From NCBI GenBank assembly GCA_963735595.1, contig CAVTLK010000005.1, forward strand, positions 448,001-512,000: 64,000 nucleotides of DNA, written 5' to 3'. The stretch is from an uncultured delta proteobacterium. Its GTDB lineage: Bacteria > Desulfobacterota > Zymogenia > Zymogenales > Zymogenaceae. The first letter of the stretch is position 1, and every line of letters starts with the position of its first letter. This document shows, piece by piece, positions 24,001 through 33,000 of this stretch. Position numbers: made by a program.

Positions 24001-27000
24001 ACGGCGTCCTCCAACGTCACGATGACCGCACTTGACGGAGACCCGACGATGGACGTGCTCGACCGGGGCTACATCGCGGTATGGACCGAGGATGCCGAGC
24101 GGCAACCCGCTGGCCAGGCTCTACCGGTTTGACGGGATCGATCCAGGCAGCAAACCCCGTAACGGTGGAAGTGGTGCAGATGGGCGGGGACATCACGGGG
24201 ACGGATTTCACTGTCCCCTTCGACGACGGGGAGTATCACAAGGCCGAGATCGTCCTTGAGGGTAACGATTTCTATATCTACTTCGACGACGTATTGCTGG
24301 ACTTCGACGGTATGTCGGGCCCATCGGCCGTGGGCGGGTCTTCGGCCGTCGACAAGAACTACACGCACGGGAGCATCGGCTTCGGGGTCAAGGACGTTAT
24401 CGCCAAGTTCGACAACGTCCAGGTCTGCGGCTGCGCGCCGCTGCAGATCACGGCGTCGGACTTGACCTTCCCCGCCGAAACCGGCGTGACGCTCTCCCTG
24501 ACCGACACCATCTACGGACTGCCCGCCCCGGGCCCGGTGGACTGGCTTGTCACGCCGAGCGACAGCGGGACCTTCAGCAGTCAATCCGTCCACCGGGGCG
24601 ACCGTCGTCTTTACGAGAAGCCTTACGGGGGCCTTCCCGGACGAGTTTGACGCGATAGACGCCCTGGGGTGCATCGCGATGATGCTGCCGCCGCCGCCAC
24701 TGCCGACGTGCCTGACGCAGAACTTCGATGCAAGCGACTCGAGCCTCAGCAACACCGGTTTTGCATCATGGGTCGGGTCGTGGGTGATCGCTCAGGACGC
24801 TTCGAACGGCAACAGCAAGGGGATTCGCTATACCAGCATAAACTACAGCGGCGTCAAGCTGATCAGGGCATCGGCCGGTACGTACAGCGCCATTTGGAGC
24901 AACCATGATGCGGTAGACCTCTACGACGATTACACCGTTGAAGTCGACATACGGCCGACGAGTACGTCGTCCTCAGCCGGCCTCTTCTTCAGGAACGACG
25001 GTACGTCGAACGCCGGTTACTACCTGTACATTTCGAATGACGGCGGGGATACGCGGGTGAGGCTTCGTTACGACGGAAACCTGACGGACGTCGGCAGCTC
25101 CAGTACCCTGGATTCGGACACTACGTCATACTCGTACAGCACGTCTGCCGTCTATCACCTCAAGGTGACGGTCGACGGATCGACCATATCGTATGAGGTA
25201 TCCAAGACAAATATCGGATCGCCCACAACCTACCTCATCAGCAGCGGAACGGTCACGAACTCCACGCTCAAGACCGGCGGGCCGGGGTTCTGGCTCTACA
25301 ACGGCAGCAGCAACAGCTACAACGCCTACTTCGACAACTTCGAGATCTGTACGCTGCCGTAGCCGGTACCGATCGAACCAAAAGGAATGGGGGGCTACAG
25401 CCCCCCATTTTTTATATGCCATGACGAAACTACCGGCTACCTGCCGGGCGCGGGAAGCGCGGCGTCCAGCCGCGCGGCGTCTTCCTCCAACTCCTTCCAG
25501 TCGATTCCCTTCTCGTCGTTTTCCTTCTGCACGATGAAGAAGGCGCAGTAGCCGTCGCCATTTGCCCTGCACGCAACCTCCCGGGACTCGACCGCTTTAT
25601 GCTCGAAGGTTTGGGAGAGGCACTCACCGATCCCCTCCAGGTAACTCTGGTGAACGACGCACTGCGGCCTGGCCGACGTGATCCCTTCGGCCTCGTAGAT
25701 GTTGGCGCACTTGAGGAAAAACACCCGCCGGTTATCCTTCCCCCTGCCGGTGACTGTCCGGGAAAGCCCCCACCCGTAGAGCGGAAACACGGACCCAAGC
25801 ACCGCGTCCATTGATCCGAGGGCAGGATCCAGCTCCTTCCAGCTATAGTCGGCAAGGGCCTTTTCGGCCACCGCGAACCCCCCCCGTTTTGCGACACTGT
25901 GGAGGATGGCCAAGGCGCCCCGATCGGTAAGTATCTCTCCCATCGCCTCCTTGAATTGCTGAAGCAGCCGGACGGTCTGAACCGTAAAGGCGGTGTTGCC
26001 GTACGCGGTGATCTCACGCGTGTCGGCAACCGGGACGAAGCCCGCCGGGATGGTTCCGTCGGCAAACCGGCACGGAAGGATGGCCTCATCATGGAACCGG
26101 GTAACGTCCGCAAGCGTCGGGTGTTCCAGCAAAGCGTCCGGCGCCCCGAGCTTCGTGAGCATGGAGCGAAAGACCATGGTCAGGGTGTCTTTTCCTCCAA
26201 CCAGCTCGATCTCGTCAAAAAACGCCTCCATGAACCCCTTGCGGGTCAGGATAACCCGATCCCTGCCGCTGCCCCCGTCGAGGTAAATAGCGCCGCCGGC
26301 GGGTTCCCAGGCGATCTCTCTTGCTGATGAAGACATATGATACCTCGAAATGATTGTTGAATGACCCTCGATTACGCATAGTTATATCAACGGAGGGCGA
26401 ATAGGAGTGTGAGCAATCTAACATAAATAGAACAATCCTTCAATCGAAAAGTGAGCGTCATTAACCCGACAAAAAAAGGAGGGTGACCTGGTGTGGTCAC
26501 CCTCCCGGTATCGTCTGGGGCGTGTGGTTACCCGAAAACCCGCTTGACCTCTTTGAATGCCGCATCGGCGACGTCGATCGATTTCTCGATGTCTGCTTTT
26601 TCGTGGGCCGCCGATATAAACCAGTTATGGTGGGGGTGGAAGAAAACACCCCGCTTCATGGACTCTGCGGCAAACAGCTGATTCATGCGGAAGTCCTCGC
26701 CTCCCTTGAAAGTGATAAAGGGAATCGCAGCGGGGCCGGTTACCGAGATCTCGAGATCGTGGGCCTGGGCCATCTCCTCCAGCCCGGTCTTGAGCAGCTC
26801 GCCCATCTTCTTCATCTTTTCGATGGCCTTATCCCGCTTGAGAATCGTCAGAGTCGCCACGGACGCCGCCATAGGCTCCGCCGAAAACCAGTAGCTGCCG
26901 GTATAGAATACGTTGGACGCGCTGATACGCAGGTCATCCTTGCCCACCATTGCCGAGAGGGGGTACCCGTTGGCGATAGCCTTGCAGTAGCAGGAGATAT

Positions 27001-30000: not shown

Positions 30001-33000
30001 ACAGACCAGCGTGCCCGTCTTCTGCAGCGAGTCAAGAACGGTCTTCATGTCAAGCGGATAGAGGGTTACCAGGTCGACTATCTCGGCCTGTATCCCGGCC
30101 TGATCGAGGAGCTTTGCCGCCTCCAGCGATACGCCCACGCCCAGGAGGTGCGTTACGATGGTTACGTCGTCGCCGCGCCGCACGATGCGGGCCTTGCCCA
30201 GCGGCAGCGTATAGTCTCCGTCGGGCACCACTCCTGTCTGGGGGTACAGCAGCTTGTGCTCAAAGACAATAACCGGGTTTTGTGAGCGGATCGCCGCCTT
30301 CAGTATCCCCTTTGCGGTATACGGGTCCGACGGCGCCACTGTTATCAGGCCGGGGATGCCGAAGAAGAAGCGCTCCATCGACTGGGAGTGCTGGGCGGCC
30401 ATGCCGATACCGCCGCCCACGGGCGTGCGTATGGTCAAGGGGACCGAGACCTGCCCGCCGGTCATGTACCTGATCTTGGCGGCCTGGTTCAGGATGGGGT
30501 CCATCGCGCAGGTCAGGAAGTCGGAAAAGAGGATCTCGGGGACGGGCACGAGCCCGGTGATCGCCGCACCCACCGCCCCGCCGATGATCCCGTTCTCGGA
30601 GATCGGCGTGTCTATGACCCGGTCGCTCCCGAACCGGTCGACCAGCCCCTCGGTAACGTTGAAGTAGCCGCCGAGGGTCACGTCCTCCCCCCAGATGAAG
30701 ACGCGCCCGTCGCGCTCCATCTCTTCGGCCAGGGCCTCGTTGATCGGCCTGCCCGACGGAAATGAGCCTGCCCTTCGGCTCGTCGAGAAAGCGCGCCCTC
30801 GAACAACGAACGGTCCTCGGGCGCGTATGTATGCTCGGTGAGGGTAGAGAGTGCCGGCTCCGGAGAGGCTTCGGCGGACCGCACCGCCGCGGCAACCACC
30901 GCGGCGGCTTCCTGCCTGACGGCGTCGATATCTTCCGGGGATGCGCCGCGCGCGGCAAGAAAGGCCGAAAACCGCTTGATCGGGCACTGCTTTCTTGTAT
31001 CGCTCTTTTTCCTCGGCGCTCCGGTAGCTCTCCGGCTCGCCCTCCATGTGCCCGTGCCAGCGGTAGGTCATGAGCTCCACCAGGCGCGGTTTCTTGTCCC
31101 GCCGAATCTTCCCGATGACGGCGCCGACCTTCTCGAAGACCTCCCGCACGTCGTTTCCGTCAGGCCCGGATTGCCTCGATATTGTAGGCGGCGGCCCGCT
31201 TATATATTTCGGGTAGGGCAGAGTGGCGCTCCACCGAGGTAAACTCGCCGTAGCGGTTGTTCTCGATGACAAACAGTACCGGAAGATTGAAGACGGCCGC
31301 CATATTGGCCGCCTCGTGGAACATCCCCTGGTTGACCGAGCCGTCGCCGGCGATGACGACCGAGACGTCGTCCCGCCCCTCTTTCTTGATGGTGAGCGCC
31401 GCGCCCATGGCAAGCAGGTAGCCGGCCCCGACGATCCCGTTGGCCCCAAGGATGCCCAATGCCGAATCGGTGACGTGCATCGAGCCGCCCTTGCCGGAGC
31501 ACAGGCCCGAGGCCTTTCCGTAGATCTCGGCCATCATACCGTTTATATCGGCCCCCTTGGCTATCACGTGGCCGTGCCCCCGGTGGGTGGTGTTGAGGTA
31601 GTCGGTGGGCCTCAAGTTCAGGCATACGCCGGCCGCCACCGCCTCCTGCCCTATGGACAGGTGTATGGCCTCCGTGGGGATCGCGCCCGCCCTGAACGCC
31701 GTCGAAAGGTGTTCTTCGAAGGCGCGGATAAGAGACATGGTCTTGAGTATATCGAGGTCCCGGGGGGCGGCCGGCTTAGCGGCCTTTGCCGGGCGGGGCG
31801 CCGCCTTCGGTGCGGTGTCGACCAATACAAGCGGCACGGAGCCCAGCGCCGCGAGATCATACCCCCGCTTCTTCAGCACGGGCAGCCAGGAAAAACGCCG
31901 CAGCTTTTTGACCTTCCGGACTCTGTTCCAAAAGGTCTCCCCTGCCGGCCTCCTGGAGGACCCCCGGATAGAGGGCAAACGCCGGTTTGAGGGCGGGCAG
32001 GAGCTTGAGGGCCTTCTGGATGGACCCCTTGGCGATGATCTTACGAGAGGCGATGGCCAGCGGGACGTTGAGCTGCTCCATCCAGAACAGGTGGCTCGTC
32101 TGGCCGGACAGAATCATCTCCACGTCCGGGTCCTCGGGGGCCTTCGGGTCCCAGTAGAACCGGGGGGTGGCCCCCCGGGTGTCGACATACAGGTCGGCAT
32201 CGGGATCGGTGAGGCGGAACTTTACCAGGATCCTGGACTGGCCGACGCTCTTGATTATCTGCGGATTGGAGAGGATCTTGTCCCAGAGGATGGTGAGGAT
32301 ACGGACCATCTCCTCTCTGTCGGAAAATGGTTTCATCGGATAACTCCGAATGAACGTTGTTATGTCAGATAAAAATAACTAAAAGTGCATGAGATGTCAA
32401 GGAATTTATCCAAACCGCGCGGGTGGTTTTTTGTTATCAAATTGCCCTGTTTATGGTATCATTTTCTTTCAATTCGGGAGCTCTCGGTGATCCTTGGAGG
32501 CGATATCGGCGGCACGAAGACCAAGCTCGGGCTTTTCGAGCCAGCGGAGCAGGGCCTGGTCTGTACCAGGAAGAAGACCTACCGCTCGCGGGAGCACCCG
32601 TCGATCTTTTCGATCCTTGAGGATTTCATCAATACCGGCGAAACGGTCCGATCGGTCTGCCTTGGGGTGGCGGGTCCGGTGGAGGGGGGAAGGGTCAGCG
32701 CGACGAATCTCCCCTGGAAATTTAGCGCGGACCAGATCGCCTCGGCCGTCGGCGCCGGGGCCAGGGTTTTCCTGCTGAACGACCTGGTGGCCCTGTCCCT
32801 CGGGGTCGTCGGCCTCTCCCCCCCGGATATCGTCCCCCTCAAGGGAGGGGCGGCCGATCCCAGCGGAGTCCGCGCCGTGATCGCGGCCGGGACGGGCCTG
32901 GGGCAGGGGTACCTCGTCCCAACACCGGGCGGCAGCTCGTTCAGGGCGCTGCCCTCGGAGGGCGGCCATGCGGACTTTTCACCCCGGACCGAGACGGAGG

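Follow-up and report, generated by a model that had tools for sequence, protein, structure and literature searches.

A single-chain SCP2-E1alpha-E1beta fusion as a candidate E2-independent acyloin lyase for hydrophobic substrates

The window, meaning the whole 64,000 nt stretch of an uncultured delta proteobacterium of the family Zymogenaceae that was analysed (contig CAVTLK010000005.1, positions 448,001 to 512,000), harbours a gene for an E1-type enzyme fused to an SCP2 domain, followed by a short run of further genes. The six genes to which an earlier note on this DNA had drawn attention all lie on the minus strand. The features of the locus are as follows.

32372..32400, minus strand: predicted sigma-70 promoter (TTGACA, 17 nt, TATTTT), 36 bases before the start codon
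29794..32336, minus strand: SCP2-E1alpha-E1beta fusion gene, broken by five single-base insertions
31920..32336, minus strand: N-terminal SCP2 lipid-carrier domain of the fusion, about residues 1-140 (Pfam, AlphaFold, fold search)
30815..31780 (approximate bounds), minus strand: E1alpha part, AcoA-type, with EAIH pocket motif, THRGHGH, GDG ThDP motif and catalytic-loop His
29794..30775 (approximate start), minus strand: E1beta part, with catalytic Glu, Phe and His kept and a basic E2-docking patch
28805..29629, minus strand: crotonase of the dienoyl-CoA isomerase type (NCBIfam PRK06142, 367 bits, cut-off 308)
27814..28569, minus strand: SCP2-family protein, probably two tandem SCP2 domains (Pfam, C-half, E 4.9e-9)
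26528..27763, minus strand: FumI-like class III aminotransferase (Pfam; best PDB match 6HBS)
26477..26506, minus strand: predicted intrinsic terminator closing the four-gene unit (12-pair stem, T run)
25437..26336, minus strand: V4R-domain protein, a conserved neighbour beyond that terminator; a second terminator, belonging to this gene, lies at 25409

The predicted promoter shows 10 of 12 matches, with such sites no more numerous than in shuffled sequence; its -35 hexamer is kept upstream in the related genomes G001, G003, G004 and G005, and carries one change in G002. At the other end of the unit, a hairpin with a T run occurs at the same place in G001, G002, G003 and G005, with none seen in G006 or G008. 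The V4R gene is a conserved neighbour but lies outside the predicted unit, beyond the terminator that follows the aminotransferase. Between these ends, the crotonase is related to EchA21 (E 5e-72) and to dienoyl-CoA isomerases (E 7e-66). The model of the tandem-SCP2 protein (pLDDT 90) has a repeated helix-strand pattern; its C-half, searched alone, resembles human SCP2 (Z 10.9), and its N-half corresponds to a Pfam SCP2 match in homologues. Contigs of RNA run X18 cover parts of all these genes, although contigs provide no measure of expression.

The fusion gene is currently split into three pieces, 31857-32336 (SCP2; Pfam E 1.7e-4), 31160-31978 (E1_dh) and 29794-31449 (the remainder of E1alpha, then E1beta), which together constitute one gene. 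It had been described as not intact in this assembly, and five extra single bases, at 31922, 31162, 30989, 30792 and 30744, account for this; all five are missing from contigs of related strains, and are most likely assembly errors. That the three parts form one chain in relatives, in open frames of 864, 897, 872 and 872 aa, was likewise borne out, with intact proteins of 844 (G001), 866 (G007) and 865 aa (G008) counted from Met, and a late frameshift in the 897-aa frame of G005. Of the codon changes relative to G003, 57 are synonymous, 14 are non-synonymous and none is nonsense. In the AlphaFold model of the G001 orthologue the SCP2 domain is well defined (pLDDT 90; Atlas 0.94), and a structure search aligns it to human SCP2 with Z 13.8 and an rmsd of 2.0 over 108 residues. 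The top ten structural matches are all SCP2-type (Z 13.8-9.3; next 6.6). The N-terminal domain has the SCP2 sterol carrier fold and is a putative lipid binder.

The remainder of the protein possesses E1_dh, Transket_pyr and Transketolase_C domains, the ThDP motif and the catalytic Glu and His, fitting the alphaKADH2 or heterotetramer-type E1 superfamily. Catalytic residues are intact in all 125 fusion sequences, as are the His and Arg of the AcoA-type THRGHGH motif, and a His occupies the position of human PDH Tyr89, as it does in 40 of 43 E2-adjacent alpha chains. The fusions differ at the position of human alphaPhe61, which is Ala in 124/125 as opposed to Phe in 43/43 matched non-fusion chains, and carry a one-residue insertion along with this change. 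Phe61 lines the phosphono-ester pocket of PDH, as described in PMC12655727, and we read this side of the pocket as that of the leaving group. In trees, all made with FastTree, the fusions fall into a single clade (support 100) amid the AcoAB-type enzymes. Identity to the AcoA- and AcoB-like genes of Bacillus loci is 47 % and 45 %, and the 57 % reported earlier for AcoA was not reproduced. Scores fall below the NCBIfam equivalog cut-offs for pyruvate dehydrogenase E1 (TIGR03182, 310 bits vs 394; PRK11892, 331 vs 454).

No E2 gene was found in any of 114 fusion loci, 46 of which extend at least 3 kb on both sides, whereas E2 is present in 38 of 44 AcoAB-like loci. Within the host family, none of ten genomes has a full-length E2; the single positive genome of the earlier note is G001, whose hit covers E2 only in part and lies in a 268-aa frame. 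Similarly, the note's negative for lipoate synthase stands for the eight fusion carriers of the family, none of which has LipA, but not for G006, which has LipA and is without the fusion. LplA/B and GcvH were absent from all five host-family genomes tested, and neither these, E2 nor LipA were found in the present genome (93 % complete). A free lipoyl carrier was also sought here and rejected, as the two best biotin/lipoyl-domain matches have biotin-type MK motifs and the third resembles an efflux adaptor. In E1beta, the Geobacillus Glu285 position, which we take to be the E2-docking residue, is K or R in 108/125 fusions and D or E in 31/39 E2-adjacent beta chains, 7/39 of the latter also being basic. 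Taken together, the absence of E2 from the loci, the lack of lipoylation genes in this genome, the basic docking site and the Phe to Ala pocket support an E2-independent enzyme for bulkier substrates. Counting against this, amongst 31 other fusion carriers E2 occurs somewhere in 23 and a LipA match in 25, and three of five LipA-less carriers tested have an LplA/B-family gene. An alpha/beta E1 adjoins E2 in 5 of 20 such regions, homodimeric E1 types lying outside this count, and Desulfoluna limicola also has an SDR-SCP2-AcoA-AcoB-E2-LipB-LipA operon.

The fusion family is widespread, with at least 120 clusters keeping the SCP2 domain, and its presence in 8 of 10 host-family genomes was confirmed. 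A neighbourhood conserved across lineages was looked for and none was found, the surroundings of the fusion differing in most. Class III aminotransferases adjoin the fusion in 8 of 43 lineages, against an expected 1.6-3.6 % (assuming 9-20 such genes per 3500), with binomial and Fisher values that overstate the enrichment because kin are not independent. Other recurrent neighbours are crotonase, long-chain acyl-CoA ligase, AFOR, permeases, alanine dehydrogenase and FadL; SDRs occur in five lineages and zinc alcohol dehydrogenases in two loci. No sugar-pathway family is found beside the fusion in as many as three lineages, and single epimerase or glycosyltransferase neighbours occur. A second cluster combines a putrescine-aminotransferase-like pair, amino-acid/polyamine permeases and alanine dehydrogenase, contents that could point to small amines, not lipids. 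The tandem-SCP2 family is found in 9/31 carriers vs 5/286 non-carriers.

The assignment of the operon aminotransferase as FumI-like holds: its best solved relative is the aminopentol aminotransferase FumI of Sphingopyxis sp. MTA144 (6HBS; E 3e-111, next best 3e-51), and it is clear of glutamate-semialdehyde aminomutases (hemL model 221 bits, cut-off 527). FumI converts a 2-amino-3-ol into a 2-keto-3-ol, as described in PMC3136697, giving a 2-keto-3-hydroxy chain. FumI-like genes adjoin the fusion in only 2 of 43 lineages, lying directly upstream of it in the second (L052, L051, L164), and at a minimum of 44 % identity occur in only 8 of 31 other carriers, leaving 23 without. The earlier observation that G006 has the aminotransferase block but not the fusion is correct, and the block also stands without the fusion in G007 and G008. 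Elsewhere the conserved partner of this aminotransferase is a split transketolase, as in the operon of the cultured carrier D. limicola, which also has the fusion. This transketolase is encoded in all ten host-family genomes, including this one, away from the fusion operon, so the idea that the fusion replaces it there was rejected; it was not found in genome G058. Four of six plasmid FumI-like loci examined sit with a chain-cleaving enzyme, namely an unrelated single-chain E1 plus AcoC (two, mutually related), a split transketolase (one) and a kinase plus class II aldolase (one). A C-terminal extension of the L188 aminotransferase was considered as SCP2 and not supported. In this genome neutral ceramidase has no match above the Pfam cut-off, and one below it (E 3.6e-4).

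Amongst known systems, the fusion shares with AcoA/AcoB, the acetoin:DCPIP oxidoreductase of Bacillus and others, 45-47 % identity, ThDP and catalytic residues, THRGHGH and a region of the tree, and differs in being a single chain with an N-terminal SCP2 domain, no E2 in its loci, a basic docking patch, and Ala for the Phe61 of the GFVH pocket. AcoAB cleaves acyloins (PMC12247030), and the same is predicted of the fusion. The E2-less alphaKADH2 enzymes (KbDH-alpha/beta and those of aldgamycin and kosinostatin) are likewise of E1alpha/beta fold and without lipoate, and one product of this sugar-branching system is later transaminated (PMC12247030). Compared by description only, these enzymes are biosynthetic, join pyruvate to keto sugars, reside in sugar clusters and have no SCP2 described, whereas the fusion is not located in an NDP-sugar or natural-product cluster. 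No enzyme cleaving the FumI product is named in the part of the FumI account covered here (PMC3136697). FumI acts on hydrolysed fumonisin in an aerobe, and deamination of a 2-amino-3-ol by the window aminotransferase is putative. Fatty aldehydes are freed from lipids, by removal of a short piece, through 2-hydroxyacyl-CoA lyase and sphingosine-1-phosphate lyase alike. The former uses ThDP, belongs to a different family and has CoA esters as substrates, and the latter is PLP-dependent and needs a phosphorylated base, general descriptions that set both apart from the fusion.

From the observed architecture, fold, residues and gene context we infer a substrate class, a direction, a fate for the C2 unit and a role for SCP2. 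With about an even chance of being correct, the fusion would be an E2-less acyloin (alpha-hydroxy-ketone) lyase for hydrophobic substrates, giving a C2 unit and a hydrophobic aldehyde. ThDP would first attack the ketone, and cleavage of the C-C bond would then follow the course of acetoin splitting by AcoAB; AcoAB also accepts methylacetoin and diketones and passes the acetyl unit on to carbonyl compounds (PMC12247030). The exit of the aldehyde would be the widened pocket, and the SCP2 domain would probably hold this product. The C2 unit left on the cofactor would either come off as acetaldehyde or be handed to a carbonyl compound, for example pyruvate or acetaldehyde. Aldehyde:ferredoxin oxidoreductase, acyl-CoA ligase and beta-oxidation could then process the aldehyde, which fits the dienoyl-CoA-type isomerase next door. 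In the host lineage the acyloin would probably derive from a lipid 2-amino-3-ol transaminated by the FumI-like enzyme, and in others probably from other aminotransferases or diol oxidation.

The earlier note had gone further, naming a 1-deoxy-sphingoid base. Its single-chain architecture, SCP2 fold, AcoA-type active site (with a widened pocket) and E2 and lipoate independence within the host family stand, as does the link to class III aminotransferases, but the 1-deoxy-sphingoid substrate is not established, most carriers having no FumI-like gene, the block occurring without the fusion, and its usual partner being the split transketolase. A sphingoid substrate therefore appears doubtful. Equally tentative is a wider scheme in which anaerobic sediment bacteria break down sphingoid bases without the help of oxygen, ATP or S1P lyase, whereby the FumI-like enzyme would make a 2-oxo lipid, the split transketolase would take 1-hydroxy bases (sphinganine type) and the SCP2-tethered, lipoate-free E1 would take the 1-deoxy ones, and SCP2 domains would ferry the fatty aldehyde on to AFOR and beta-oxidation.

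It is quite unlikely that the fusion is instead a biosynthetic carboligase, decarboxylating pyruvate and adding C2 to a fatty aldehyde or ketone from which the aminotransferase makes a 1-deoxy amino-alcohol lipid. E2-less alphaKADH2 enzymes do add C2 from pyruvate to keto sugars, with the new ketone transaminated in kibdelomycin (PMC12247030), the widened pocket would suit a long acceptor equally well, and a few loci (L146, L042, L185) have an MBOAT or glycosyltransferase gene alongside; recurrent neighbours, however, look catabolic, and AcoAB is said to depend on methylacetoin or diketones for its donor. Plain turnover of acetoin or small diketones in fermentation, with SCP2 as regulator or aldehyde trap and the aminotransferase operon an accidental neighbour, is distinctly unlikely. 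It would accord with AcoAB as nearest characterised relatives, with the adjoining SDRs and alcohol dehydrogenases, with the block lacking the fusion in G006, G007 and G008, and with the prediction that the host class makes acetoin (bioRxiv 2021.03.22.436540), but sits poorly with a fusion-specific pocket change in 124/125, retention of SCP2, and the enrichment of aminotransferases and of tandem-SCP2 proteins in carriers.

Improbable, too, is a non-oxidative decarboxylase of long-chain 2-oxo acids (alpha-oxidation), yielding CO2 and an aldehyde one carbon shorter. Decarboxylation of 2-oxo acids by E1 enzymes needs no E2, the chain would be bound by SCP2, and AFOR genes are present; yet the active site is of the AcoA type, the Tyr89 position being His, and most substrates of class III aminotransferases are amines that lack an alpha-carboxyl. 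The pocket change, moreover, maps to the side binding the ester of the carboxyl mimic (PMC12655727). We consider just as improbable an oxidative acyloin cleavage using a non-lipoyl acceptor (SCP2-held quinone, or ferredoxin), or E2 in trans where a genome has one. The two His residues that serve in reductive acylation are retained, the SCP2 fold is known from proteins of quinone pathways (UbiJ) and D. limicola has the E2-containing operon mentioned above, but this genome yielded no E2, lipoyl carrier or ligase, and the host class is reported to be without a complete electron transport chain (bioRxiv 2021.03.22.436540). Least probable of all, whatever the family does, is a recent pseudogene in this strain: five insertions fall within 1.2 kb with none in four downstream genes, and reads of this very strain were not found (best share 0.29), but the codon changes and related contigs described above speak against it, and frameshifts, three in number, likewise break up a pilin-like gene nearby; several genes elsewhere in the assembly are split too.

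Literature searches, with most subscription papers outside their scope, gave no relevant match for a Glu285/PSBD role, an SCP2-E1 fusion or SCP2 with acetoin dehydrogenase, a sphinganine-transketolase-aminotransferase link, the fum cluster gene list or anaerobic sphingoid catabolism. Lipoyl independence in an E1 is itself already known from the sugar-branching alphaKADH2 enzymes (PMC12247030), and it is just the SCP2-fused form that seems undescribed. If the lyase reading is true, a catabolic stand-alone E1 has been retooled for lipid substrates, and anaerobes would have a lipoate-free way of breaking down amino-alcohol or ketol lipids into fatty aldehydes. The fusion also offers a testable answer to the fate of the 2-keto product of FumI-type enzymes. 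AcoAB already serves as a catalyst for carboligation, which gives practical value to a natural single-chain variant with a wide pocket.

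The six minus-strand genes that the earlier note had placed at 25437–32336 are all present in the window, and its reading of the SCP2, E1alpha and E1beta pieces as one frame in relatives holds. The first three ORFs constitute a single gene, which is intact in three genomes of the family (G001, G007 and G008), encoding proteins of 844, 866 and 865 aa, respectively. By comparison with G001, G002 and G003, the window copy carries five surplus bases (at 31922, 31162, 30989, 30792 and 30744), and for each of these one or more contigs from related strains lack the base. Against the codons of G003 it displays 57 synonymous and 14 non-synonymous differences, with no nonsense change, and a pilin-like gene nearby is likewise broken by three frameshifts. 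For these reasons the breaks are likely to be assembly errors; sequencing reads of the source strain were sought, and none were found.

29794–32336, minus strand: SCP2-E1alpha-E1beta fusion gene
20169–25362: pilin-like protein, a single 1680-aa protein in G001, here in four frames with three frameshifts

A promoter-like site 36 bases upstream of the fusion start and a 12-pair terminator 3′ of the aminotransferase both recur in close relatives. The predicted transcription unit runs from the fusion through the crotonase and tandem-SCP2 protein to the FumI-like aminotransferase, with the V4R gene beyond the predicted terminator. Intergenic gaps of 164 and 236 bases within the unit are large enough for internal signals.

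The best 120 database matches to the fusion share at least 59 % identity across the first 400 residues, and are mostly about 845 aa long. Of 79 loci in species genomes, 34 either align with the SCP2 end or are truncated by the edge of a contig, these spanning Desulfobacterota, Myxococcota, Chloroflexota, Acidobacteriota, Spirochaetes, Caldithrix and Rhodothermales, and including the isolate Desulfoluna limicola. When the phylum is sampled evenly, the fusion occurs in 8 of 10 family genomes, matching the earlier count for its SCP2 part, versus 5 of 291 others. In a tree that includes 28 of the fusions, these group as a single clade (support 100) amongst AcoAB-type enzymes (AcoAB being acetoin dehydrogenase E1), and structure prediction with a fold search gives an SCP2 fold for the N-terminal domain. 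The fusion is a member of the alphaKADH2 superfamily and its predicted mode of action is most like that of AcoAB, but it does not class with the acetoin dehydrogenase complex, being without E2 and altered in both docking patch and pocket. The earlier note had regarded a lipoyl-independent, lipid-targeted E1 of this architecture as undescribed; lipoyl independence by itself is not new, because E2-less superfamily members are known as sugar-branching carboligases (PMC12247030). The literature searches gave no description of a single chain with SCP2 fused to it.

No E2 gene was found at any of 114 fusion loci, compared with 38 of 44 AcoAB-like loci that possess one. Full-length E2 was likewise not found in any of the 10 family genomes, nor LplA/B or GcvH in the five tested. 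The lack of E2 and lipoate synthase that the earlier note saw in this genome is upheld, and within the family LipA was found only in G006, a genome without the fusion (G006:C11:111350–112192, above cut-off; genome 99 % complete, neither E2 nor fusion found there). Amongst 31 carriers outside the family, 23 have E2 elsewhere in the genome and six have neither E2 nor LipA, with an LplA/B-family gene in three of the five tested from these six. The position equivalent to Glu285 of Geobacillus E1beta, a presumed point of contact with the E2 binding domain, is Lys or Arg in 108 of 125 fusions; in 39 E2-adjacent beta chains it is acidic in 31 and basic in 7. Separately, D. limicola harbours an operon (L267:1759–9564) of SDR, stand-alone SCP2, AcoA, AcoB, E2, CMD-family protein, LipB, LipA and SDR genes; this stretch has no E3 match, and the fusions are not the sister group of the E1 encoded there.

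Residues equivalent to human alphaHis63, Arg90 and His263, and to betaGlu59, Phe85 and His128, are unchanged in all 125 fusions, and the human Tyr89 position is His, as in AcoA-type chains. A motif that reads GFVH or GFIH in 43 of 43 matched non-fusion chains (six further chains lie outside the pattern) is EAIH in 122 of 125 fusions, whilst the human Phe61 position is Ala in 124 of 125, accompanied by a one-residue insertion. A docking study places Phe61 in the pocket where pyruvate analogues bind by their phosphono-ester group (PMC12655727); we infer that an acyloin's leaving aldehyde sits on this side, and that the pocket is wider in the fusions. We propose, with moderate confidence, that the fusion is an acyloin lyase that needs no lipoate and takes hydrophobic substrates, which it would cleave to an aldehyde and a C2 unit. 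AcoAB itself cleaves acetoin, methylacetoin and diketones, and transfers the acetyl unit to carbonyl acceptors (PMC12247030). A biosynthetic carboligase appears unlikely, and plain acetoin turnover slightly more so; acetoin production by the class is predicted in a preprint (bioRxiv 2021.03.22.436540). A 2-oxo-acid decarboxylase and an oxidation by a non-lipoyl acceptor are each improbable.

As for the usual partner of the aminotransferase, D. limicola and four other genomes display the gene order tandem-SCP2, FumI-like aminotransferase, split transketolase. Within the family this module is divided, the transketolase and a second tandem-SCP2 gene residing on contig C1 of the source genome:

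G000:C1:385600–403000 (L261): C1 cluster, similar in G006 and G007; TetR, putrescine-aminotransferase-like pair with small SCP2 gene, permease, split transketolase, tandem-SCP2 paralogue, permease, alanine dehydrogenase, MoxR/vWA, 2-hydroxyacyl-CoA dehydratase subunits, aldehyde:ferredoxin oxidoreductase (AFOR)

As the split transketolase occurs in 10 of 10 family genomes, and the crotonase-SCP2-aminotransferase block is kept without the fusion beside it in G006, as previously noted, and likewise in G007 and G008, the fusion is an addition to the pathway rather than its sole lyase. The contribution of the window locus is a physical link between the fusion and the aminotransferase module. A methyl-ketone acyloin would fit an AcoAB-type site and a hydroxymethyl-ketone a transketolase, making plausible a division of labour between 1-deoxy (fusion) and 1-hydroxy (transketolase) amino-alcohols. 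A 1-deoxy-sphingoid base as substrate is nonetheless doubtful, since most carriers are without the aminotransferase, no ceramidase exceeds the Pfam cut-off in the source genome, and the C1 cluster could serve small amines. A second split transketolase (45–51 % identity to the lipid-amine one) lies at G000:C5:35100–42800 (L263), with a zinc alcohol dehydrogenase and a frameshifted glycyl radical enzyme.

A FumI-like gene occurs in 8 of the 31 other carriers, with weaker matches (33–35 %) in three more. The product of FumI is a 2-keto-3-hydroxy chain, according to two papers (PMC3136697; PMC2933618). Of six plasmid FumI-like loci examined, four have a chain-cleaving enzyme alongside and two have none within 7 kb. 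In Agrobacterium and Shinella the partner is an unrelated single-chain E1 accompanied by AcoC, in Variovorax it is a split transketolase beside amidases, and in Novosphingobium it is a class II aldolase together with a kinase. This convergence supports a putative route from amino-alcohol to ketol to C–C cleavage. In Agrobacterium and Shinella (L290:192–10224 and L291), the E1 alpha/beta chain is of a distant lineage and shares an operon with the aminotransferase; genes for a class II aldolase and a four-carbon acid sugar kinase lie close by, as does that for AcoC.

In most lineages (80 % clusters, n=43) the fusion lies amid unrelated neighbours, as scanned in two selections of 110 and 56 neighbours. 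Of the 43 lineages, 8 have a class III aminotransferase no more than four genes away, versus about 2–4 % expected, and these enzymes come from several subfamilies: FumI-like in two lineages (the window's own, and L052, L051 and L164, split over two clusters), in the L055 group a putrescine-aminotransferase-like pair accompanied by a small SCP2 gene, in the L188 group a GSA-like enzyme, and further types besides. SDRs and acyl-CoA ligases each recur in five lineages. In G007 and G008 the fusion is 5′ of a long-chain acyl-CoA ligase, two genes past another class III enzyme, and in L192 a tandem-SCP2 gene is immediately 3′. The tandem-SCP2 family is present in 9 of 31 carriers versus 5 of 286 non-carriers, some of these genomes having given profile rows. 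The GSA-like enzyme (L188:4520–6307) bears a 150-aa C-terminal extension (a weak SpoIIAA-like Atlas lead, 0.83), and in one lineage genes of its type lie immediately 5′ of the fusion at five loci. In a single case (L146:2596–11981), a GH116 glycosidase and a zinc alcohol dehydrogenase lie 5′ and an MBOAT gene 3′. Elsewhere, an iron alcohol dehydrogenase is fused at its C-terminal end to a domain from the same SCP2 subfamily (L255:2284–4122; L256:7106–8986), and in the source genome (L265) an iron alcohol dehydrogenase and an AFOR flank a stand-alone copy of this domain, the subfamily often lying beside enzymes that make or use aldehydes.
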